From assembly GCA_019358975.1 (NCBI GenBank), contig JAHHIL010000019.1, positions 1,473-65,472 on the forward strand: 64,000 nucleotides of DNA, read 5' to 3'. The notes under the pieces were generated by a model. That model did no database searches, had not been told where the DNA came from, and was given only the letters and a program-made list of their open reading frames with translations. Origin of the DNA: Trichocoleus desertorum ATA4-8-CV12. Lineage in GTDB: Bacteria; Cyanobacteriota; Cyanobacteriia; FACHB-46. A program made the position numbers and the translations under genes. Shown here one piece after another: positions 52,616 through 63,999 of the stretch (positions are counted from its first letter, which is position 1; every line of letters starts with the position of its first letter).

Positions 52616-52867
52616 TCAATCTGCTTGAGCCGCTTTTGCTTCGTCTTCTAGCGCTTGGATGGCTAGTAGCAACTCTTCTTCTTGCACTTCAAAGTCTGCT
52701 TCAGACACGTCGCCCATATCAAACGCTAATTGCAGAGCCAGTAACCGCTTACTGAGATTCTCTTTATCGTCCCACTCAGCATTCACCCGTTCTTGAATTT
52801 GTGAACCTAGCCAGGTTATGCCTGCCAGGGGACCAGTAATGGGTGCTAATAGTAAGTCAAAAAACAT
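52616..52867 (-). CDS. gvpG: Gas vesicle protein GvpG
   Basis: LLLAPITGPLAGITWLGSQIQERV... followed by the acidic tail ...EADFEVQEEELLLAIQALEDE, typical of GvpG. 83 aa. Confidence 0.8.
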   Translation of the reverse strand: MFFDLLLAPITGPLAGITWLGSQIQERVNAEWDDKENLSKRLLALQLAFDMGDVSEADFEVQEEELLLAIQALEDEAKAAQAD

Positions 52868-52878
52868 AGCAAGTTAGC

Positions 52879-53622
52879 CTAATTTGATGAGTCAAGTTGA
52901 GCGAAGTTGTAGGGAGCGGTGAAGTTGTTGTAGCGAATCCGCAAACGGCCCTCAAATTGCAAATCCAAGGCTTCTACTTTTTCACTAAATGTGGGCTCGT
53001 CATCCCAAGCGATCAGATAAGCCGCGTTGTAGATCATGGCTTCTGTCAGCGGATCATTTTCTGATGTGGTGTTTGCGAGAGGATCTAAGGTGGCTCGAAA
53101 TACTTGAATGATGCTTTGCTTGCGAGCTTCTACTGCTTGTTCGATCGCCTGACCAATCCGAATTACCTCATCCATGCTGAGAGATTTACCCTCTAAGCGA
53201 TCGCGCTCGGTGCGTAGCTGCTCATCTTGAGCTAACAGGGCTTGTACCTCAGCCTCAGCGTCCCAAAATATTTTTACGCCAACTTCTCTTCTGCCATCTA
53301 GTTTATGAAAGAGCTGTTCTAATTTGGGTCCCTGAGTTGCAGTGAGTTGTTCTGTGACGGTGCGCCAATCCTCCACAATTAGACCAAACTGTAGGGGTAA
53401 CAGGGTTCGGTGGCCTGCATGCATGGCTTGTTCTAGCACCTTCTCATGGTCTAGCAAGTTGCGACGACTGGCTAAATAACGTTCTTGCTGGGCTTCAGAA
53501 TAGAGAAATGTAAACCCATCTAGAACATGGGTATGAACAGGTTGTTTATCTAAACCCTGAGTTTCTAGATGTTGGGGGCCAGGGGTAGGGAAGATGCCAT
53601 ACAAATACAATCCGGTTCCCAT
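52879..53622 (-). CDS. gvpF: Gas vesicle protein GvpF (GvpF/GvpL family)
   Basis: LYLYGIFP..., LLPLQFGLIV and REVGVKIFWD motifs. Start set to ATG 53622. Confidence 0.85.
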   Translation of the reverse strand: MGTGLYLYGIFPTPGPQHLETQGLDKQPVHTHVLDGFTFLYSEAQQERYLASRRNLLDHEKVLEQAMHAGHRTLLPLQFGLIVEDWRTVTEQLTATQGPKLEQLFHKLDGRREVGVKIFWDAEAEVQALLAQDEQLRTERDRLEGKSLSMDEVIRIGQAIEQAVEARKQSIIQVFRATLDPLANTTSENDPLTEAMIYNAAYLIAWDDEPTFSEKVEALDLQFEGRLRIRYNNFTAPYNFAQLDSSN

Positions 53623-53752
53623 CGACTTTTCTTTTCCTACTGCAATGTTTGAGTACTGAGTGAAATTAATTGCGTTTTTTATATAGCAATCCTTTTTGAT
53701 TCTTGAACGGGTGTGGGGGCTGCGCCCCTTGTTCACAAACCAGTTGCGATCG

Positions 53753-54214
53753 CTATAGGGGTTGCGAAGTCAAAACTAGCTTCAGTTTTGCTTGGATTAA
53801 ATTGAGTTGAGCTAGTCCCAAATCCACGCTGCCTTCGACTACTACACCCGTATTTAACAGGCGATCCAATAACTCCAAAATGGAGGGATTCGTGGAAGTT
53901 TCACCGGGGTAGTAACCTCCAGCTTTAGGCAGCAGATTGCCAATTTCTCCTAAGTCAATATTTAAGTCTGCGGGATCGACTTCAAAGATTTCGCAGAGAT
54001 GCACGACTTGTTCTTCTAACTTACGGAGGCTAGTAGCAGCTCGGTCTAAATCTTCGTCACTTAAGCGTCCTGCTTCCATCCGCCGAATCACCTGCGCTTC
54101 CATCAGTTGTCGCACTAACTCAACCACAGTCAGCAGTAATGGTGCTAAACCAGAATCTTTACTCGATCGCTGAGGTTCTAGTAATACGGGGGGTGGGGGG
54201 TCTGATAATGGCAT
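53753..54214 (-). CDS. gvpK: Gas vesicle protein GvpK
   Basis: GLAPLLLTVVELVRQLMEAQVIRRMEAGRLSDEDLDRAATSL is the conserved GvpK core. Confidence 0.85.
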   Translation of the reverse strand: MPLSDPPPPVLLEPQRSSKDSGLAPLLLTVVELVRQLMEAQVIRRMEAGRLSDEDLDRAATSLRKLEEQVVHLCEIFEVDPADLNIDLGEIGNLLPKAGGYYPGETSTNPSILELLDRLLNTGVVVEGSVDLGLAQLNLIQAKLKLVLTSQPL

Positions 54215-54294
54215 GGCTTGACCCTAGGGCTACGAGTTCAGTATGCCCAGCGCGATCGCCATCCTCCCATTTCACCGTTATCCATAAAACCCTT

Positions 54295-54323
54295 GCCCAC
54301 AAAAAAGTGGGCATAAAGCCCAC
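54295..54323 (-). terminator. Hairpin plus U-tract between gvpJ and gvpK (possible attenuator with an alternative pairing)
   Basis: The minus strand reads GTGGGC-TTTAT-GCCCAC-TTTTTT-GTGGGC. The central GCCCAC can pair with either flanking GTGGGC. Confidence 0.45.
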
Positions 54324-54363
54324 TCGGAGAGGGAGAGTCTATGGCAAAGCGAAAGCTATATTT

Positions 54364-54735
54364 CTAAGCAGGAGCTGTGGGTAAGGAGGCGGGAGCGGTG
54401 CGTAAGGCTCGCAATTCTGTTTCTAGACCCTCAATCCGCTGGAGGAGCTGTTGATTGGCCTCCATCAAGCTGTGGGTTTGGCTACTGAGATGAGGATCAC
54501 TTTCCCACCAGTTGATGCCAATTTCCTTCGCCTTATCTACCGAGGAAATCAGCAAGCGAATCCGAATGCTCAGCAGTTCGGTGGAGCCAACTGAGACGGA
54601 GATATCTCCCGCGATCACAATGCCTTTATCTAAAACTCGTTCTAGAACATCGGCTAAGGTTGAGCCTTGAGTAGCGGTGGCGATCGCACCACGGTTAGAA
54701 CTGCTAGGGGCGGGCATTTGGGGGAAAGTAGTCAC
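54364..54735 (-). CDS. gvpJ: Gas vesicle protein GvpJ (GvpA/J/M family)
   Basis: TLADVLERVLDKGIVIAGDISVSVGSTELLSIRIRLLISSVDKAKEIGINWW is the GvpA-family core, here with N- and C-terminal extensions. Confidence 0.88.
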   Translation of the reverse strand: MTTFPQMPAPSSSNRGAIATATQGSTLADVLERVLDKGIVIAGDISVSVGSTELLSIRIRLLISSVDKAKEIGINWWESDPHLSSQTHSLMEANQQLLQRIEGLETELRALRTAPASLPTAPA

Positions 54736-54747
54736 AGTGGGGCATCC

Positions 54748-56031
54748 TTAGGAAGTGACGTAGAGGCGATTGTGGCGTTGAGCTAGGATTCCCTTTTGAG
54801 CTAGGGAACGTAACGCATTCACTGCCTGAAATCGATTCATGCTTAAAGCTGCTTCAATTTCTGAGACTCGTGCTCCCTCAGCCTGACGCAGATAGGTATA
54901 TACTTCTGCCTCATCTAGCCCTAGTTGGTCTTGGTCGTTAATTTCGGTTGCGGCAATTTCGGCGATCGCTGTGGCAACAGGCTCAGCCGCCGCTTGAGGT
55001 TCAGCCACCTTCTCCACAATCTTTTCGGCGACCTTAATAGTGGCTGGCTCGGCTACAACTGAGGTGGTTGTGATAGTCACGGTGCGATCGGCATACTCTG
55101 CTCGGGGTGGTGCAGTTGTAGGTGTGGGTGCGATCGCCTTAGGTTCGCGGCAAACGAGTTCGTTTAGGAGTTCCCAAAGCAGGGTAGTAGATTCCTGGAG
55201 GGGCAAGCTAGTGCGGGAGAGCAACACATCCATGCAAATATCGCGAAAGTCAGCATCTTCCGCCATGACAGGAATATTATGCTCTTGGCAAACTTTGGCG
55301 ATCGTGATGCCAGAGCGTAAACCAGAAGATTTCTCAGCCCCTGATTTGAGCCGAAAGGCTTTGACTAACTGAGTGATTAAAATGGCACTTTCGCGCTCGA
55401 TCTCGGTTTTCTGCACCAAAATCTCTTGCTGAGTCAGCTCATCTGGCTCTGGCATGTTGATCGTGACCAGACGATCCATCAAGGCATCTTGGGTGGAATG
55501 CACCCCACAGTATTCTTCTGGATTGGAGGTGAAGATGGCCCGGAACTGAGGATTGACTCGCACATATTCGGGACGATTGCCGCTGGGTGGCAAAGCCAAA
55601 ATCTTTTCTTCTAAGGCGGAAAGTAAAACGTTGTTGACTTCGGGACGAGAGCGGTTGAACTCGTCGTAGACCAAGGTGAAGCCTTCGCGGCAAGCCAAAG
55701 TGAGGCGGGAATCTACCCAGTTTTGCTTGAGTTCATCCTCGACTTTAACCACGCTGTGAATGAAGTTATCTACTACTTTTTTGCGGGTATAACCCAATTG
55801 GTTACCAATTAGGTCTGAAGTTTTGAACTCATCATCCCCAAATACCAACATAATGGGCCGAGTCAAAAGATCAGCCAAGTGTAAAGCGAGGGTGGTTTTA
55901 CCTGTGCCAGCAGGGCCGCGCAGATGTACTGAGAAACCAGATTGTAGGTAGCGCAAAGCTCTAGCAGCCACACGCTCAACGGAGGGAGTGCTGACAAATC
56001 GACGGGGGCGGGCTTGTAGAACGGTACTCAC
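54748..56031 (-). CDS. gvpN: Gas vesicle AAA+ ATPase GvpN with an unusual linker and C-terminal winged-helix-like extension
   Basis: Walker [16 protein letters not shown] and Walker [10 protein letters not shown] (CbbQ/NirQ/GvpN-type AAA). A Pro/Ala/Thr/Glu linker follows, then the tail [55 protein letters not shown] start, sharing a GTGA overlap with gvpC. Confidence 0.88.
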
Positions 56032-57149
56032 AGGTTAAATTCCTCTTGAGTGTAATAGACGCGATCGCGCTGCGTAATTAAACCTTTGGTGATTAAGGAG
56101 CGGAGCACATCAACGGCTTGAATGCGATTGATTGCTAAAGCGGTTTCCAGCTCTACCAGACGGGCTCCTTGGACTTGGTGTAGATAGTTGTAAACTTCTT
56201 TTTCGATTTCCACTGCCGCAGGTTGAATAGCGGAAATTGGAGCGCTAGTAGGCTCTGGATTTGACCTCTCCTCCATCCCCGTTCCCACGGGAGAGGGGTG
56301 CCGCAGGTGGGGCGAGGTTTGGTTGGAATAGATTGAATTTGATTGATGATTTACATCTAGATCTACGCCCCAAACAGAAGCTCGCAGATTGGTGCAATAC
56401 TGCTGTAGCTCAGCGCGGAACGTGGCGAAGCGTTGGAATAGAGCTACGACATTGGCTTGGCGATCGCTTCTACTTTGGCTGAGCGTTTGTTGCAGTTGTT
56501 GGGCTCGATCTTCTCGTAGTAGCTCTAACTCCCACAAATAGCTCTGCACATCAGCACTGAGTTTCTCGACAAAGGTAGTGAGTTCTTTTGCTTGCTGGGT
56601 TCGCATTAGAACCCGTTCATGCTGATTAGTCGATAAAAGCGCTTGAGTTTCTTGTTGAAGCGTAGAAACTTGCGTTTGGATCTCTTGGCGCAGCAGGGTG
56701 ACGCTGATATTTAGTTCGGAGTGGAATTGGCGTAGTTCTTGGGCTAACTGCTCAGCCATCAGCGATCGCTCAATTGCGGTCAGTGATAGGAACTCAGCCG
56801 TCTGCTGTTGGAGCTGCTGTACGAAAGTATCTAGTTGCTCAGCTAGCTCCTCGGCTTGGAGTTGACGCTCTAAGCGACTATAGGCTAAAAAATTCTGGGT
56901 TTCTTGTTGCAACACCTGGACTGATTGTTGCAATTGCAGGCGGAACAAATGTTGATTGGCTTGCCAAAGCTCGCTCTCCTCAGCCAAATCAGCGCGGAAT
57001 GTAGCGAGGTTGTGGTGCAGCTGATCTGCTTTTACTTGGCGTTGCTGCCGCGTTACCGCTAAAGCCGCTTGGACTTGTTGCTGGCGCTGAGCTAGTTGCT
57101 GCTGACGCTGCCGCCGCTGTTCTTGCCATAAATGTCTCAGAGCAACCAT
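56028..57149 (-). CDS. gvpC: GvpC-like gas vesicle outer-surface protein with a C-terminal winged-helix-like extension
   Basis: It sits directly downstream of gvpA. Two clean 33-aa repeats are [33 protein letters not shown] and [33 protein letters not shown], with more degenerate units around them. The repeat region ends in LRASVWG, compared with DLFVSIFG at the end of Anabaena GvpC as I recall it. Confidence 0.75.
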
Positions 57150-57199: not shown

Positions 57200-57233
57200 G
57201 AAATCAAAGAATGGGGAGTCAGCAAGACCCCCC
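57200..57233 (-). terminator. Imperfect hairpin and T-rich tail between gvpA and gvpC (possible partial terminator)
   Basis: The minus strand reads GGGGGGTC-TTGCT-GACTCCCC (one mismatch), followed by ATTCTTTGATTT. Confidence 0.35.
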
Positions 57234-57243
57234 AAGCTAGCTA

Positions 57244-57462
57244 CTAAGAAGCAGGAACAGCAGCCTGAGTGGTCAAACCCACTGCTTCGGCGTACTTTAG
57301 GTAGGTTTCAACCGAAGCAATGACTACCCGTGCTTCGATTGCCAATAGTTCAATTCCTACGAGAGAAACGCGAACCCAAGCATCAATTACAATGCCTTTG
57401 TCGAGGATGCGGTCAATTACTTCAGCCAAGCTAGAGGAGGAGTTTACTTTTTCAACAGCCAT
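57244..57462 (-). CDS. gvpA: Major gas vesicle structural protein GvpA
   Basis: [63 protein letters not shown] is a near-canonical cyanobacterial GvpA. 72 aa. Confidence 0.97.
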
Positions 57463-57985: not shown

Positions 57986-58249
57986 TTATGCTTTCACTCG
58001 CTGCTCAAAATCTTCGCGAGTTTTTTCCAGCAGCGTCAAAGCTTCTTGATACACCTCTGGATGCTCTTGCTTTAACCACGCTAACAGCCGCGCCACTTGA
58101 ATATTTTTTAGTTCCAAATCAGCTTGAAAAATGGCTGCTGTTGCCATGTGAGGTGCATATTCTGTTGGATGTCCCTGCATGATAAACGTAGCGGTTAGCA
58201 GCCTCAATGCCTGTCGCCGTACTGGATCGTCTGTTTGTCCTGAAAGCAT
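57986..58249 (-). CDS. Small hypothetical protein between the AAA+ ATPase gene and gvpA
   Basis: 87-aa ORF on the same strand as the gvp genes, 45 nt downstream of the AAA+ gene. Its composition looks helical. No family is recognised. Confidence 0.4.
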   Translation of the reverse strand: MLSGQTDDPVRRQALRLLTATFIMQGHPTEYAPHMATAAIFQADLELKNIQVARLLAWLKQEHPEVYQEALTLLEKTREDFEQRVKA

Positions 58250-58250
58250 A

Positions 58251-58293
58251 AGGGGAAAGGATGAAGGAGGAGAGATGAGGGATGAAGGAGGAG
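58251..58293. repeat. GGATGAAGGAGG-type short repeats
   Basis: aggggaaaggatgaaggaggagagatgagggatgaaggaggag belongs to the same motif family as 14048-14218 and 33252-33356. Confidence 0.65.
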
Positions 58294-60123
58294 TTAGGAG
58301 GTTTGTCGTTGGGCTGCTAAAGCTTGATAGGCGGTAACGAAATCATCATTGCGAATGCGAACTTGGGTGGGATCTGCCAAACCTTGGGCTCGGTACTGTC
58401 GAATCGCTTCTAAAGCGGCTTGATTACTGAGTAAGGCTAAATCTGCACCATTCCAGCCTTCTGTTTGTGCAGCCCAAGTTGCTAGGTCTACGCCTTGTAG
58501 AGGTCGATCTTGGTTATGAACTTGCAGAATGGCGAGGCGACTGGCTTGATCGGGTAAATCTACTTTGAGTTGCAAATCTAAGCGTCCCGCTCGCAGGAGG
58601 GCAGGATCGAGAGCATCGGGGCGGTTGGTCGCTCCAATCAGCAAAACGTTGGGACAACCCTGTAAGCCGTCGAGTTCTGTTAACAGTTGACCGACGACGC
58701 GATCGCTCACCCCTGAGTCCCCATTGAAACGGCCTCGTGCTGGGGCTAATGTGTCAATCTCATCGACGAATACAACACAAGGAGCGGCTTGGCGAGCTTT
58801 GCCAAATAATTCCCGTACAGATTGCTCGGCAGCACCCACCCAACGGCTCAGCAATTCTGGGCCATTAACGGCGATGAAGTTGGCTCTGGCTTGAGAGGCC
58901 ACAGCTTTAGCAAGTAGCGTTTTACCTGTGCCTGGGGGTCCCCAGAGCAGAATGCCGCGTGGCGCTTTGGCTCCTGTTTGTTGATAGAGTTCTGGGTAGA
59001 GAAGTGCGCCTTCTACCGATTCTTGCAATGTTTGCTTGAGGTCATCCAGGCCACCGATGTCATGCCAAGCCACATCCGGCGACTCAATCTCTACAGAGCG
59101 CAGAACGGCGGGTTTTACTTCTTTGATGGCTTGCAAAAAGTCTGGTTGGGTCAGGGTCATTTCTTCTGGCAGGGGTTCATCTAAAGAAGGAACTAAGCGG
59201 CGCAAGGCACTATAAGCAGCTTTTTGGCAAAGGGCTTTTAGGTCTGCACCGACTAAACCCACTGCCAAGTCAGCGATCGCGCTTAAATTAACCGACTCCT
59301 CCAAGGGCATGGACTGGGTGAGGATTTGCAAAATCTCTAATCTGCCATCGCGATCGGGCACCCGGAACTGGACTTCGCGATCGAAACGACCAGGACGACG
59401 CAACGCTGGGTCAAGATAATCAGGGCGGTTGGTGGCAGCGAGAACAATCACACCCTCGGTTTTGGCAAAGCCATCCATCAAACCCAACAGTTGGGCGACC
59501 AGACGCTTTTCGACTTCCCCTTCGACTTTGCTGCGATCGGGAGCGAGGCTATCAATTTCGTCAATAAACACCAGGCAAGGAGCTGATTTGGCGGCTTTTT
59601 CAAAAATGGCCCGCAACCGACTTTCAGCTTCTCCGTAGTATTTGCCCATCACCTCTGGGCCAACGATCGCAATGTAGTTAACTCCCAAATCTTCGGCTAA
59701 GGCGCGGGCAGTTAAAGTTTTACCCGTTCCTGGTGGCCCGACTAGCAACACGCCTTTCGTTGGTTCCAAGCCCAACCGTTGCAGCAACTCTGGACGCTTG
59801 AGGGGAATTTCTACCAGTTCTCGCAGTTCTTTTAAGACAGGTGCCAATCCACCCACAGTTTTCAGCGGTGGGGCTTTGGAGTCGTGGGTCGGTGGCGTTA
59901 CGGTGACTTCGGGGGTTGAGGCTGGTGTTGTATCAGCACCGGGAGAAGTGACAGGCCCACGACGCACGCCCATACCTGAGGGGATGTTTCCTTGTCGGGG
60001 AATACTACTTAAACTGCGGGAGCGAAACTGAATATCTGTCTTGATTTCTCCCTGTTCTGCCTTTTCTTCCAGGGCTTTAGCGAGTTCCAGCAGTTGCTCA
60101 AACCCTTTGAATAAGTTGTCCAT
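58294..60123 (-). CDS. CDC48/VCP-like ATPase with two AAA+ domains and no recognisable Cdc48 N-domain
   Basis: D1 has GPPGTGKTLTARALA, VFIDEIDSL and ATNRPDYLDPALRRPGRFD. D2 has GPPGTGKTLLAKAVA, VFVDEIDTL and ATNRPDALDPALLRAGRLD. The N-terminal 100 aa or so are low-complexity. Confidence 0.88.
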   Translation of the reverse strand: MDNLFKGFEQLLELAKALEEKAEQGEIKTDIQFRSRSLSSIPRQGNIPSGMGVRRGPVTSPGADTTPASTPEVTVTPPTHDSKAPPLKTVGGLAPVLKELRELVEIPLKRPELLQRLGLEPTKGVLLVGPPGTGKTLTARALAEDLGVNYIAIVGPEVMGKYYGEAESRLRAIFEKAAKSAPCLVFIDEIDSLAPDRSKVEGEVEKRLVAQLLGLMDGFAKTEGVIVLAATNRPDYLDPALRRPGRFDREVQFRVPDRDGRLEILQILTQSMPLEESVNLSAIADLAVGLVGADLKALCQKAAYSALRRLVPSLDEPLPEEMTLTQPDFLQAIKEVKPAVLRSVEIESPDVAWHDIGGLDDLKQTLQESVEGALLYPELYQQTGAKAPRGILLWGPPGTGKTLLAKAVASQARANFIAVNGPELLSRWVGAAEQSVRELFGKARQAAPCVVFVDEIDTLAPARGRFNGDSGVSDRVVGQLLTELDGLQGCPNVLLIGATNRPDALDPALLRAGRLDLQLKVDLPDQASRLAILQVHNQDRPLQGVDLATWAAQTEGWNGADLALLSNQAALEAIRQYRAQGLADPTQVRIRNDDFVTAYQALAAQRQTS

Positions 60124-60141
60124 GCTTGTGCCGCCAGTGGG

Positions 60142-60177
60142 GTGATGCCTGTTGAGTGATGCCCGTTGAGTGATACC
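60142..60177. promoter_or_regulatory. Tandem 14-bp direct repeats in the divergent AAA+/ArsA intergenic region
   Basis: gtgatgcctgttga (60142-60155), gtgatgcccgttga (60156-60169), and a partial gtgatacc (60170-60177). The intergenic region is 110 nt. Confidence 0.35.
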
Positions 60178-60233
60178 AGTAGAACGATCGGTTCTAGGCC
60201 CATTGATTCAGGTGTAACAATCTTTACGAGCCT

Positions 60234-62114
60234 ATGCATCAGTATGATTCCCTGCAACTCGCTCTCTTTAGCGGCAAAGGGGGTGTCGGTAAAACTACCC
60301 TTTCCTGTAGCTTCGCTCGCCGCTGGGCTAGACAGTTTCCTGACCAACAAATTCTTTTAGTTTCTACTGATCCAGCTCACTCCTTAGGCGATGTGCTGCA
60401 AGTAGAAACCAGTAATGCGCCCCATGCCTTAGCGGATTTACCCAACTTACAAGTGCGATCGCTGGATGCGGCTGCCCTCCTCCAAGACTTTAAAACTCGG
60501 TACGGTCAAGTTTTGGAGCTTTTGGTAGAGCGGGGTAGTTTTGTCCAGGGAGAAGATTTATCTCCCGTTTGGAACTTAAGTTGGCCTGGGTTGGATGAAT
60601 TGATGGGCATTCTGGAAATCCAACGCCTCTTGCGAGAGGGAGAAGCCGATCGCGTCGTGGTCGATATGGCACCCAGCGGCCACACTTTGAACTTGTTTAA
60701 GTTAATGGACTTCTTGGATGAGTTGCTGGCAGCTCTAGAACTGTTTCAAGAAAAACATCGAGTTTTGAGCCAAAGCTTTACCGGACGCTACACAGCCGAT
60801 GATGCGGATGCTTTTCTCCACGAGATGAAGGCAGAGCTACTAACTGGGCGACAGCTTTTGCAAAACCCTGACTGCACAGCTTGTTTGGTAGTGGCGATCG
60901 CTGAACCAATGAGCTTTCTAGAAACTCAGCGATTTTTAGAGGCACTAAACCAACTGCAAATTCCCTGCGGTGGATTGCTGGTGAATCACATTCTCACACC
61001 ACTTGAGGATGGCGATCGCTACAGTGAGCAGCAGGAGATGTTAGGCAAGTTCCAAACCCTCAGCACCCTCAGTACTGACAAGCCGATTTTTACGGTGCCC
61101 CAACAACTTGAGGAACCTGTAGGCTCAGCTGCTTTGGATCAAGTCGTGGCTCAGATCGCTCCTTTGGGAATCGTGGCTCTCCCTTCGCCCGTGGTGGTGC
61201 AATGGCCTACTAAGATTCTGCCGAGTTTCGAGGATTTTGTGGCCGTAGGTCGTCAGCTCTTACTCGTTGGAGGGAAAGGGGGAGTGGGTAAAACCACAGT
61301 CGCAGCCGCGATCGCTTGGGGTATGGCTCAAAAATATCCAGAGCGCAAAGTTCGGGTGATTTCCATCGATCCAGCTCACTCTTTGGGCGATGCTTTTGGG
61401 CAACCATTAGGACACCAACCGACGGCGTTAACCCACAACTTAACGGGGCAGGAAATTGATGCTGGACAAGTCTTAGAGCAGTTCCGAGAAGAGTACCTGT
61501 GGGAATTGGCGGAGATGATGAGTGGAGATAGCACCGAGGGCGATCGCTCGCTGAGCATTGCCTACGGCCCCGAAGCATGGCGACGGATTGCAGCTCAGGC
61601 TCTACCTGGAATTGATGAGATGTTGTCGCTGCTTACGGTAATCGATTTGCTGGAGCGACAGGAGCAAGATTTGATTATTTTGGATACCGCTCCTACCGGG
61701 CACTTGCTCCGCTTCTTAGAAATGCCTACAGCTCTCGGAGATTGGCTAGCCTGGATTTTTAAGCTGTGGATCAAGTATCAAGACGTGTTGGGTCGTACCG
61801 AATTTATGGGTCGTCTGCGATCGCTGCGGCAACGGGTGATGCAAGCGCAAAAACGGCTCCAAGACCCGAAATATACCGAGTTTATTTTGGTGTTACAAGC
61901 GCAATCTGCCATTGTGGCGGAGGGTCAGCGTTTAGCTCAGTCCTTAGCAGAGATGGGGGTGCCTCAACGCTACGTGGTGCACAATCGCTTTGAACCAGAA
62001 CTTCCACTGCCTGCTGATGCCTTGCCTCAACACACCACCATTCATCTGCCAGTCTTGCCTCGCTCAGTTACTCCTCTCGCTCGGATTCAAGGTGCAGCGA
62101 AGTTATTGTTCTAA
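60234..62114 (+). CDS. Tandem (two-domain) ArsA/Get3/TRC40-family ATPase
   Basis: The first half has GKGGVGKTTLSCSFA, STDPAHSLGD and DMAPSGHTL. The second half has GKGGVGKTTVAAAIA, SIDPAHSLGDAFG and LDTAPTGHLLRFLEMP. Confidence 0.88.
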   Translation: MHQYDSLQLALFSGKGGVGKTTLSCSFARRWARQFPDQQILLVSTDPAHSLGDVLQVETSNAPHALADLPNLQVRSLDAAALLQDFKTRYGQVLELLVERGSFVQGEDLSPVWNLSWPGLDELMGILEIQRLLREGEADRVVVDMAPSGHTLNLFKLMDFLDELLAALELFQEKHRVLSQSFTGRYTADDADAFLHEMKAELLTGRQLLQNPDCTACLVVAIAEPMSFLETQRFLEALNQLQIPCGGLLVNHILTPLEDGDRYSEQQEMLGKFQTLSTLSTDKPIFTVPQQLEEPVGSAALDQVVAQIAPLGIVALPSPVVVQWPTKILPSFEDFVAVGRQLLLVGGKGGVGKTTVAAAIAWGMAQKYPERKVRVISIDPAHSLGDAFGQPLGHQPTALTHNLTGQEIDAGQVLEQFREEYLWELAEMMSGDSTEGDRSLSIAYGPEAWRRIAAQALPGIDEMLSLLTVIDLLERQEQDLIILDTAPTGHLLRFLEMPTALGDWLAWIFKLWIKYQDVLGRTEFMGRLRSLRQRVMQAQKRLQDPKYTEFILVLQAQSAIVAEGQRLAQSLAEMGVPQRYVVHNRFEPELPLPADALPQHTTIHLPVLPRSVTPLARIQGAAKLLF

Positions 62115-62122
62115 AGCCCAAG

Positions 62123-62800
62123 CTAAACAAAGTGATAAGGAGGGAGCGCTTCACTCAAAGTTAGCTCCCAGTGGGGACAGTGAATTTGCCAGGTTTGCAA
62201 GTGTTTGTACAGTTGGGATGATTCCTGGGCACTCACCAACAGATAAACTCGTTGGCTACCATCTTGAGCTTCACCCAAGACTGGACCCGGATAGATTTGG
62301 GCGATCGCTTGCACCAAGGTTTGCCACTCAGCCGTTTGTTGCTGTTGCTGCTCATACTGACTTTGGAAACGGCGTTTTTTGGCTAAAAAATATTCTCGCC
62401 CCTGAGCTTCTGTGGGCAAGGTTGCTTCGATTTCTAAGACTAAGGGGGTTAATTTCAGGGTGTATTCAGCTTTGCCACTCACCCGTGCTAACTTCTCTAG
62501 ATACTCCTGGGTGTGGGTTTGCAGATGGGCTAGTAACCCTTCAGTAGACAAAAACCGAGTGCCAAACCGCAGCGGCAATAGAGCGGTGTGCTCAAACAAT
62601 TCTCGAATTACGCGATCGTGTGTCAACACTGCTTGGACTAACTGAGCGTCATGATCTTGTAGCGTTTCAAAAGACAGCTCAGGTTCGACCAGGGCAGAGA
62701 GGCGATCGCAAGTGACTAGCTCCAAAGCACTCACAATTCCAGACGGCAGTTTGATGGCACTTGGGGGCGTATTGAGAAAAGCATAGGTGTACATCGGCAT
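62123..62800 (-). CDS. Second GvpF/GvpL-family gas vesicle protein
   Basis: MYTYAFL..., LLPLRFGTRF and AEYTLKL parallel the motifs of the gvpF at 52879-53622. Confidence 0.75.
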   Translation of the reverse strand: MPMYTYAFLNTPPSAIKLPSGIVSALELVTCDRLSALVEPELSFETLQDHDAQLVQAVLTHDRVIRELFEHTALLPLRFGTRFLSTEGLLAHLQTHTQEYLEKLARVSGKAEYTLKLTPLVLEIEATLPTEAQGREYFLAKKRRFQSQYEQQQQQTAEWQTLVQAIAQIYPGPVLGEAQDGSQRVYLLVSAQESSQLYKHLQTWQIHCPHWELTLSEALPPYHFV

Positions 62801-62889: not shown

Positions 62890-63999
62890 CTAAGTGACGG
62901 AATCTGGCATCAGCTCAAGACCAATTTTGAGTTGCAGGTGTCCAGTAGACCAATCATCACTCACCGGGGGTTGTAGGGCGATGGGAGTACCTTGAAGTAG
63001 CTGTTGTAAGAGCGGTGTGCTGGTCGCGATCGGCTCAAGTAGTTGGGCGAGGAATGTAGCTGCGGGTTGCAAGTTCCCACCTACGCCGGAACCACCCCGA
63101 ATTAAGGTTTGAGCCACTAAAGCATTGTGCATGGCTTTGAGCGCTTGTCCAGTTGACAGATCGAATAGCCAGTTCAGGTGGGGAGAGCTGATCTCAAGCA
63201 CAGCAAATAACCGGAGAGTCCCTGCCAGCCAAGGCTCATTGGGTTGCAGTACCTCCGCTGGTATGCCGCCTACCAAGTGCATAGTCTGATAAGCGCTGCT
63301 GGTAAGCTGCCAAAGCAACTGAGGGAGCCAGTTATCGACACAAACTTCTGGCTGAAGCGGCCCATCTGGTGCTAGCTCAGTAGCATTGGGTATCTCCTTC
63401 GCGATCGCCTCAGCCGTTGCTACAACGCTGGGTAGCAATACAGCAGAGAGATCAGTAGACGCTGAATCGGTTTCAGGTGTAGCAGTTGCGTGAGCGATCG
63501 CCACACTAAGGGGTTGTAGTTGAGTTTGGAAATAGGCTTGCGCGATTGTTGGCTCGGTTAGCTTAACTTTTAAGGCGGTCCCAAACGCTGATATTCCGTT
63601 GGGAGCGGTGAGATCCGTCAGGGTTGTTCCTGCGGTAAATTCAAACGCAAACTGCAACTGTAAGGTGCCCGCCTGCCAAGCTTGTCCGGGTTGGAGACAA
63701 TCCACTGCGGTTGGGGTGGTAAACCATTGCATTTCTGGCGTCACGGTCTGCATTTGCTGGAGCAACTGCTGGGTAAAACGCTGTGCCCAAGTGGGTTGAT
63801 TGCAGAAATTTTCGCCCTCAGTCTGAATCAGCGCTTGATGTGTCAGATTGTTGGTAGGCGGCTGATTGGTGGCTAAATCTAACGCCCATTCTGCTTGGGG
63901 CAACTTCAGCGTTAGCAGGGCTACGAGACGTAAAGCTCCTGTTTGCCAACCTTGCCCAGGCTGAAACACTTTTGCCTCTACGCCACAAAGCAAGCGCAT
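62890..63999 (-). CDS. Repeat protein with four degenerate KGK-like modules (possibly 5'-incomplete at the window edge)
   Basis: The recurring unit is (V/C)LQPGQ.WQ.G.L.L...(L/F)E. It appears as VFQPGQGWQTGALRLVALLTLKL, CLQPGQAWQAGTLQLQFAFEF, VLQPNEPWLAGTLRLFAVLEI and LQPPVSDDWSTGHLQLKIGLELMPD. It resembles the cyanobacterial KGK domain as I remember it. Confidence 0.5.
   Translation of the reverse strand: MRLLCGVEAKVFQPGQGWQTGALRLVALLTLKLPQAEWALDLATNQPPTNNLTHQALIQTEGENFCNQPTWAQRFTQQLLQQMQTVTPEMQWFTTPTAVDCLQPGQAWQAGTLQLQFAFEFTAGTTLTDLTAPNGISAFGTALKVKLTEPTIAQAYFQTQLQPLSVAIAHATATPETDSASTDLSAVLLPSVVATAEAIAKEIPNATELAPDGPLQPEVCVDNWLPQLLWQLTSSAYQTMHLVGGIPAEVLQPNEPWLAGTLRLFAVLEISSPHLNWLFDLSTGQALKAMHNALVAQTLIRGGSGVGGNLQPAATFLAQLLEPIATSTPLLQQLLQGTPIALQPPVSDDWSTGHLQLKIGLELMPDSVT

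Follow-up and report, generated by a model that had tools for sequence, protein, structure and literature searches.

Gene content of the locus

We analyzed a 64,000-nucleotide stretch of the Trichocoleus desertorum ATA4-8-CV12 genome (assembly GCA_019358975.1, contig JAHHIL010000019.1, positions 1,473 to 65,472; the window), in which two ATPase genes lie inside a cluster of gas vesicle (gvp) genes. A first-pass annotation had called four open reading frames (ORFs) in this part of the cluster, and all four were present with unchanged coordinates. Domains of the window proteins were assigned with Pfam and NCBIfam, and structural relatives were taken from matches to the Protein Data Bank (PDB). 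The first ATPase gene (58294-60123, minus strand) encodes a 609-amino-acid (aa) AAA+ protein with two PF00004 domains and two PF17862 lid domains (E 9e-90). The second (60234-62114, plus strand) encodes a 626-aa tandem ATPase of the ArsA/Get3 fold with two PF02374 (ArsA_ATPase) domains (E 4e-103). As described earlier, the two genes diverge from a 110-nt spacer (60124-60233), and the stop codon of the ArsA-like gene lies 8 nt from that of a convergent GvpF/L paralog (62123-62800, minus strand; 225 aa; PF06386 GvpL_GvpF, E 2e-31). This paralog is of the GvpW type and was 44 to 48% identical to the Nostoc gene that directly follows the AAA+ gene there; GvpW itself (228 aa) is a distant relative of GvpL/F (Castillo & Saier 2010, PMC2963123). 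An 87-aa ORF (57986-58249, minus strand) begins 44 nt downstream of the AAA+ gene, and beyond it lies gvpA (57244-57462, minus strand; PF00741), which encodes the major shell protein. No ars gene had been seen near the pair, and none (arsB/acr3, arsD, or arsR) was found among the window ORFs at about 49 to 64 kb.

The ArsA-like ATPase

The P-loop, switch I, and switch II were intact in both halves of the 626-aa protein. The motifs on which its first-pass assignment rested were all found, with GKGGVGKT at residues 14 and 347, DPAHS at residues 46 and 379, and DTAPTGH at residue 484; the first half (A1) additionally carries DMAPSGH at residue 144. The protein scored 353 bits against TIGR00345 (TRC40/GET3/ArsA), which passes the cut-off of 135 bits, and 198.5 bits against the arsenical-pump equivalog TIGR04291, which is far under the cut-off of 650 bits. 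Its best PDB match was Chlamydomonas chloroplast ARSA1 (5zme; E 5e-47), followed by yeast Get3 and Escherichia coli ArsA. When it was aligned with E. coli ArsA (1f48), the cysteines that bind As(III)/Sb(III) were replaced (A/G at C113, V at C172, and G at C422), and the only cysteines of the protein are at residues 25, 214, 217, and 245. The single CxxC (C214/C217) aligned with a beta-strand region of Get3 and not with the Get3 zinc motif. Because the metalloid-binding cysteines are replaced and the TIGR04291 score falls so far below its cut-off, the protein is not an arsenite pump subunit. Its sequence identifies it as a tandem pseudo-dimeric Get3/ARSA1-like ATPase.

ARSA1 is likewise a tandem pseudo-dimer, and the P-loop and both switches are common to the window protein, ARSA1, and Get3/TRC40. 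However, only about 30% alignable identity links them, the window protein has no CXXC zinc motif at the Get3-type site, and no receptor resembling Get1/2 was evident for it. Conserved helical segments rich in Trp, Phe, Met, and Leu flank switch II, where Get3 builds its client groove. The tandem A1-A2 layout and the DTAPTGH motif are shared with E. coli ArsA, but the window protein lacks all three metalloid cysteines and has no arsB, arsD, or arsR gene nearby. The closest agreement was with the gvp-linked two-domain ArsA proteins described as "Cluster 4" and "Cluster 6" (Castillo & Saier 2010, PMC2963123), which are about 600 to 640 aa long, are internally duplicated, have no ars partners, and in cyanobacteria are also encoded in gvp clusters with gvpW. 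Nothing substantive set the window protein apart from them, and we regard it as another member; the gvp-linked ArsA members of Nostoc and Anabaena were 64 to 66% identical to it. Non-cyanobacterial gvp clusters likewise contain a dedicated chaperone-type gene, encoding an Hsp20-type small heat shock protein (GvpH in some clusters). That analogy is functional only, since Hsp20 is ATP independent and of an unrelated fold. The hsp20 gene is missing from the cyanobacterial gvp clusters that carry ArsA (Castillo & Saier 2010, PMC2963123).

The AAA+ ATPase

The classification of the 609-aa protein as a CDC48-type double AAA+ ATPase was upheld, and Walker A and B were intact in both rings. In D1, Walker A spans residues 129 to 136, the pore loop is K161-Y-Y-G164, and Walker B spans residues 186 to 191; in D2, the corresponding elements are residues 395 to 402, R427-W-V-G430, and residues 452 to 457. 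The KYYG (D1) and RWVG (D2) pore loops and the DEID Walker B sequence of both rings were invariant in 80 orthologs. Thermoplasma VAT was the best PDB match (E 1e-172, query residues 88 to 576), with p97/Cdc48 next. Against the CDC48 model TIGR01243, the protein scored 663 bits, which is under the cut-off of 802.65 bits, and only model positions 179 to 675 were aligned. The N-terminal double-psi barrel/beta-clam domain of Cdc48 is absent, and the PDB matches start at query residue 88. Across the 80 orthologs, the N terminus consists of a helix from residue 1 to about residue 25, with conservation reaching about residue 48, and of a variable linker rich in Pro, Thr, and Ser from about residue 50 to residue 88. 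The N-terminal motif that defines this orthogroup is F-K-G-x-x-Q-L-L-E-x-A-K-x-L-E-E. The AlphaFold2 (AF2) model, which was of moderate confidence overall (predicted local distance difference test [pLDDT] score of 66), placed a helix at residues 2 to 23 and gave residues 27 to 91 a pLDDT below 50; the modeled linker is probably disordered or flexible. The C terminus (...AAQRQTS) was poorly conserved in the same orthologs, and the HbYX proteasome-docking motif is absent.

Judged by these features, the protein is a VAT/Cdc48-type double AAA+ ATPase without an N domain, with the anatomy of a processive unfoldase and two hydrolysis-competent rings. Its D1 and D2 align end to end with those of VAT over residues 88 to 576, especially with the N-domain-deleted form (PDB 5vc7 and 5g4f), and the two proteins have the same pore loop types (KYYG in D1 and [K/R]WVG in D2) and intact Walker motifs in both rings. 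In contrast to VAT, the window protein carries a conserved helix of about 25 residues and a low-confidence linker of about 60 residues in place of the double-psi-barrel N domain, lacks the HbYX motif, and is encoded by a gvp-linked gene. Deletion of the N domain activates unfolding by VAT, and by this analogy the anatomy of the window protein suggests a constitutively competent threading motor that would be targeted via its N-terminal helix. Cyanobacteria are not known to have a 20S proteasome. GvpN, of the MoxR/AAA_5 type, is also an ATPase encoded in gvp clusters, but its AAA+ clade is a different one, it consists of one module without threading pore loops, and it is the product of a separate gene in the window (54748-56031, minus strand). 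It is possibly needed for mature vesicles (PMC7204071).

Linkage of the ATPase genes to gas vesicle genes

The first-pass annotation had named co-occurrence with gvp genes in other genomes as a check on its proposal, and a neighborhood survey found such co-occurrence. The AAA+ protein alone served as the query; the best 80 AAA+ loci were taken, with one genome per species, and 48 of them had at least 8 kb of sequence on both sides of the AAA+ gene. At least three gvp families were present at 35 of the 48 full-flank loci, and the ArsA gene at 40 of the 48. At all 43 of the 43 Nostocales loci, the AAA+ gene was flanked by gvpF upstream and/or gvpW downstream, on the same strand and with short gaps (two of the contigs end on one side). 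The Nostocales order is gvpN-gvpJ-gvpK-gvpF-AAA-gvpW-gvpA-gvpC on one strand, and the ArsA gene is found upstream of the AAA+ gene at a distance of about 5.5 kb; published data on Nodularia place ArsA directly after gvpW. The gene order of the window was repeated in ten Leptolyngbya-like loci, and Trichocoleus sp. FACHB-591, whose GvpF was 94% identical to that of the window, had exactly this order, including a KGK-domain gene. In all, at least three different gene orders hold the ATPase genes inside or beside gvp genes.

About twenty other loci had the divergent ArsA/AAA pair (the module), usually together with the 87-aa gene, and no gvp gene within 10 kb. Genomes with such an unlinked module still encode GvpF: a GvpF search showed this for eight named genomes, and the genomes with GvpF elsewhere include those of Stenomitos rutilans, Stenomitos frigidus, Tildeniella nuda, Kovacikia minuta, and Pantanalinema rosaneae and four metagenome-assembled genomes (MAGs). 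In S. frigidus, the gvp operon was found at a locus separate from that of the ATPase module. Linkage to gvp genes in the Leptolyngbya-like group is frequent but not obligatory.

An exhaustive search of 1.84 billion representatives, clustered at 50% identity, returned only two clusters with the N-terminal helix and D1D2 architecture. All cyanobacterial AAA+ orthologs, including the window protein, fall in one of them, and the representative of the other, divergent cluster is encoded in a gvp operon of MAG GCA_028285285.1. This operon (locus L088, 7709-16662) is compact and co-directional, with the order gvpA-x-gvpN-x-AAA-gvpF-gvpG-ArsA-gvpJ-gvpK-gvpJ-gvpL. Its AAA+, ArsA (665 aa), and GvpN proteins were 46%, 30%, and 43% identical, respectively, to those of the window, and the locus has no HIP1 sites; the MAG looks non-cyanobacterial. 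Because this genome holds both ATPases in a gvp operon, the three-way association of AAA+, ArsA, and gvp genes reaches well beyond the lineage of the window and occurs there in another gene order. When metagenomes were scanned with the divergent AAA+ protein (P0310), the one locus returned was high in GC, had a single AAA domain, and was irrelevant. Directly upstream of the MAG operon (L088, 1097-7435) are genes for a PAS protein resembling photoactive yellow protein (APCT motif), an aromatic ammonia-lyase, an AMP-dependent ligase, and a histidine kinase, which hints at light control of buoyancy.

Published and expression evidence

None of the genes between gvpA and the GvpF/L paralog had been thought to have a described gas vesicle role, which proved wrong for the ArsA gene and appears to hold for the AAA+ gene. 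Two-domain ArsA homologs have been reported in gvp operons of four phyla, including those of Nostoc PCC 7120 and Anabaena variabilis, and ArsA was proposed to energize gas vesicle biogenesis; the AAA+ neighbor was not mentioned (Castillo & Saier 2010, PMC2963123). Phylogenetic profiles later grouped the tandem ArsA and eight Gvp proteins in a single co-evolving cluster (2017, PMC5464585). A literature search on gas vesicles together with Cdc48, Get3, or AAA ATPase found no paper on the AAA+ gene. The link between ArsA and gvp genes was thus published in 2010 and not followed up, and what appears to be new is the AAA+ gene as a conserved member of the gvp cluster. Both proteins belong to known enzyme families in a known cluster and do not constitute a new kind of system.

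In strain CCAP 1403/13F of Dolichospermum flos-aquae, HGD76_01370 (AAA, 617 aa) and HGD76_01375 (Get3/ArsA, 615 aa) adjoin, by locus tag, the gvp genes 01385 and 01395. The supplementary proteomics of a 2026 preprint record the recovery of both on beads coated with vesicles, without comment from the authors. The same strain has separate single-domain ArsA/Get3 proteins of 366 and 396 aa. The AAA+ ATPases that the preprint describes as enriched on collapsed vesicles were considered as orthologs of the window protein and rejected, as those proteins are 407 and 440 aa long.

In Nostoc punctiforme, the transcription start site (TSS) regions F2147, F2153, and F2159, which are upregulated in hormogonia, mapped directly upstream of the ArsA, gvpN, and gvpA genes, respectively, when their sequences were placed on related Nostoc loci. 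The Npun_F2147 and F2153 promoters have been assigned to the SigC regulon and that of F2159 to SigJ, and the block F2147-F2164 is co-regulated and hormogonium specific. By gene count, we infer that the AAA+ gene of this species is Npun_F2157. It had no upregulated TSS of its own in the hormogonium data set, which suggests that it is co-transcribed with gvpNJKF. The anticipated co-expression with gvp genes was therefore borne out for ArsA, whose promoter is upregulated together with those of gvpN and gvpA, and extends to the AAA+ gene to the degree that gene order identifies it as F2157.

Proposed role of the ATPase pair

The two ATPases are probably overlooked helpers of gas vesicle assembly or turnover. 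Of the earlier proposal that they form a chaperone or unfoldase pair for shell proteins, the functional link is supported by linkage and expression, and the mechanism, which we infer from the protein sequences, is plausible. GvpA is among the most hydrophobic and aggregation-prone proteins known. The ArsA-like ATPase could be a holdase or a delivery factor gated by ATP. Within its groove it would cover the hydrophobic parts of freshly synthesized members of the GvpA family, and the proposed clients are GvpA, GvpJ, and the GvpA-type domain on GvpK. The AAA+ ring would thread and pull out shell subunits that had assembled wrongly, had aggregated, or were obsolete, such as during hormogonium reversion or after vesicle collapse, and the extracted subunits would go back to the holdase or on to proteases. 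In the native host, vesicle yield, fidelity, or turnover would benefit from such a pair, and basic vesicle formation would be possible without it. Taken as a whole, the reading that both genes are conserved accessory parts of gas vesicle clusters and that their products act by a holdase/unfoldase mechanism has, in our estimate, an even chance of being correct. The narrower proposal of a dedicated two-ATPase client-handling machine, with a Get3-like holdase and a VAT-like unfoldase without an N domain acting on faulty, collapsed, or obsolete shells, is tentative.

If true, this would be the first case of a system dedicated to the assembly, quality control, or disassembly of an organelle whose wall is purely protein. 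It would supply candidates for two questions, namely how GvpA is kept soluble and fed into the shell and what becomes of the shell after collapse or hormogonium reversion. It could also be a missing ingredient of heterologous gas vesicle engineering, gas vesicles being in use as acoustic reporter genes. Two reports describe poor expression, irregular vesicles, or proteotoxic stress when cyanobacterial clusters are placed in foreign hosts (PMC7204071; PMC12848028), and the constructs of the first of these omit both ATPase genes. N. punctiforme is tractable, so that Npun_F2147 and the presumed AAA+ gene Npun_F2157 are open to genetic test.

Several observations weigh against a gas vesicle role for the pair. 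In a reverse survey anchored on gvp genes, the module was found within 10 kb at only one of six Leptolyngbya-like gvp loci, and in the Stenomitos group it adjoins membrane-protein genes. Leptolyngbya sp. FACHB-261 (locus L089, 10001-11905) has a solitary AAA+ ortholog, 66% identical and with the same N-terminal motif; neither ArsA nor any gvp gene lies within 10 kb of it, and it may be a counter-example. The Anabaena flos-aquae gvp genes from which acoustic reporters are built are not known to include either ATPase. The gvpABC, NJKFG, and VW genes of PCC 7120 made E. coli buoyant without either ATPase, and the vesicles were irregular (PMC7204071). ArsA was present in 24.7% of genomes, compared with 30.1% for gvpA, gvpN, and gvpK (PMC5464585). 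Finally, the amounts of the D. flos-aquae AAA protein on collapsed and intact vesicles did not differ significantly (ratio 2.4, p 0.46), and vesicle collapse induced the transcripts of ClpB, DnaK, and HtpG in that strain but of neither ATPase.

Some of these points would fit a general role in the cell, with the ArsA-like protein targeting membrane or tail-anchored proteins as Get3 does and the AAA+ protein extracting them as Cdc48 does, so that the pair would be co-inherited with gvp genes without acting on their products. Among solved structures, that of the chloroplast tail-anchor factor ARSA1 is nearest to the ArsA-like protein, the membrane-protein genes beside the module in Stenomitos and also in Tildeniella are conserved and are not gvp genes, the AAA+ protein is conserved about as well as GvpJ and GvpK (78% between orders), and the FACHB-261 copy stands alone. 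However, D. flos-aquae has its 366- and 396-aa ArsA/Get3 proteins in addition to the 615-aa gvp-linked one, the tandem ArsA follows gvp in its phyletic profile, the linkage is kept through several rearrangements and also in a distant lineage, and expression in Nostoc is hormogonium specific; we consider this explanation unlikely. Alternatively, the ATPases could serve hormogonium development or motility in general (pilus, phototaxis, or proteome remodeling) and be connected to gvp genes only through a common regulon. The contiguity of the Nostoc cluster with the ptx chemotaxis-like locus, the SigJ/SigC cascade, and a reported effect of gvpA deletion on motility all point that way. The pair nevertheless adjoins gvp genes in the planktonic D. 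flos-aquae as well, the gvp operon of the distant MAG holds it without taxis genes, and no motility gene was found in the window at 50 to 64 kb, which makes a purely hormogonial function quite unlikely.

It is improbable that the AAA+ protein is instead a regulatory unfoldase that adjusts buoyancy, with GvpC or gvp regulators as the proteins it removes and feeds to FtsH or Clp, without handling the GvpA shell. The lack of an HbYX or other docking motif at its poorly conserved C terminus, the absence of a protease gene from the cluster in both the window and the distant MAG, and the partnered Get3-like ATPase, which such a role leaves unexplained, count against it, even though VAT-type unfoldases normally feed proteases, the C-terminal winged-helix-like domains of GvpN and the GvpC-like protein could be handles for one, and the AAA+ gene is co-expressed with gvp genes and is not induced by collapse. 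The first-pass annotation had given equal weight to a chance insertion of unrelated housekeeping genes that split the cluster. The module does lie away from gvp genes in some lineages, but adjacency at 35 of 48 loci (43 of 43 in the Nostocales) compares with about 0.3% expected, a rough estimate for a neighborhood of about 10 kb in a genome of 6 to 7 Mb. Chance is effectively excluded, because the linkage is conserved across several gene orders and in a distant lineage, both genes adjoin gvp genes in D. flos-aquae, and the promoters are induced in hormogonia; the published co-occurrence of ArsA with gvp genes also stands against it.

The 87-aa ORF

The 87-aa ORF is evidently a real gene, because its product had 57 homologs at 55 to 94% identity, all annotated as "hypothetical" and all in Leptolyngbya-like cyanobacteria. 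Its AF2 model (pLDDT 92) consists of three helices (residues 9 to 24, 32 to 62, and 64 to 86). A PDB fold search with this model gave no match at an E value below 1, and the protein had no Pfam or NCBIfam match. Among the best 80 AAA+ loci, the gene followed the AAA+ gene in about 24. The earlier inclusion of this ORF in the cluster was thus right as to the gene, whereas its membership in the module is uncertain, because two of the most divergent homologs, from two divergent lineages, stand alone without an AAA+ neighbor. The protein may, with weak support, be a lineage-specific partner of the AAA+ protein.

Small ORFs also accompany the ATPase genes elsewhere. In Nostoc, a basic coiled-coil ORF of about 94 aa, which may be GvpV, always follows the ArsA gene (about 30 loci; for example, L035, 4403-4687), and a similar ORF of 113 aa stands before the AAA+ gene of the distant MAG (L088, 9642-9983). 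No homolog of the 94-aa ORF was detectable in the window, and the 87-aa protein showed no similarity to it or to other small Nostoc ORFs. In Stenomitos, the homolog of the 87-aa gene has two copies of a 515-aa ORF closely downstream of it (L014, 12701-14248 and the next ORFs; L017); this ORF had a weak match to tubulin/FtsZ GTPases (31.9 bits), just under the Pfam cut-off.

Intergenic sequences and flanking gvp genes

The spacer between the two ATPase genes contains three tandem copies of a sequence of about 14 nt (GGTGATGCC, GAGTGATGCC, and GAGTGATACC). The repeat was present as a single copy in the closest relative, and unrelated short tandem repeats occupied the spacer in other lineages (L038 and L078). 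No consensus promoter was found in it. A conserved regulatory site was considered and rejected, as the spacer aligned with that of the closest relative only. The J-box of Nostoc SigJ gave two matches in the window, each with three mismatches, far from the cluster, and at chance level, and an Rfam scan of the window gave no matches. Directly 3' of gvpA is a strong terminator-like hairpin (57212-57234, minus strand) of nine pairs, six of them G-C, which could attenuate read-through into gvpC-gvpN.

Upstream of the gvpW-type gene lies a gene for a KGK-domain protein (62890-63999, minus strand; PF08872). A KGK-domain gene is also found 5' of gvpW in Trichocoleus sp. FACHB-591 (L085, 1-1138) and in a Leptolyngbyaceae MAG (L028, about 7079) and may be a member of the same conserved block.

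On the other side of gvpA, an operon block on the minus strand (52616-57149) comprises gvpC-like (56028-57149), gvpN, gvpJ (54364-54735), gvpK (53753-54214), gvpF (52879-53736), which in truth probably starts near residue 39, and gvpG (52616-52867). The gvpK product combines PF05121 with a C-terminal domain of the GvpA/J type (PF00741), and this fusion was also found in Stenomitos (L081), Trichocoleus (L085), Phormidesmis (L087), and Leptolyngbya BL-A-14 (L093). GvpN and the GvpC-like protein end in similar TrmB-like winged-helix segments of about 50 residues (54769-54915 and 56061-56210, respectively, minus strand). A DNA-binding-type domain was unexpected on two gas vesicle proteins, and faint TrmB matches on GvpN and the GvpC-like protein recurred in Phormidesmis (L087).

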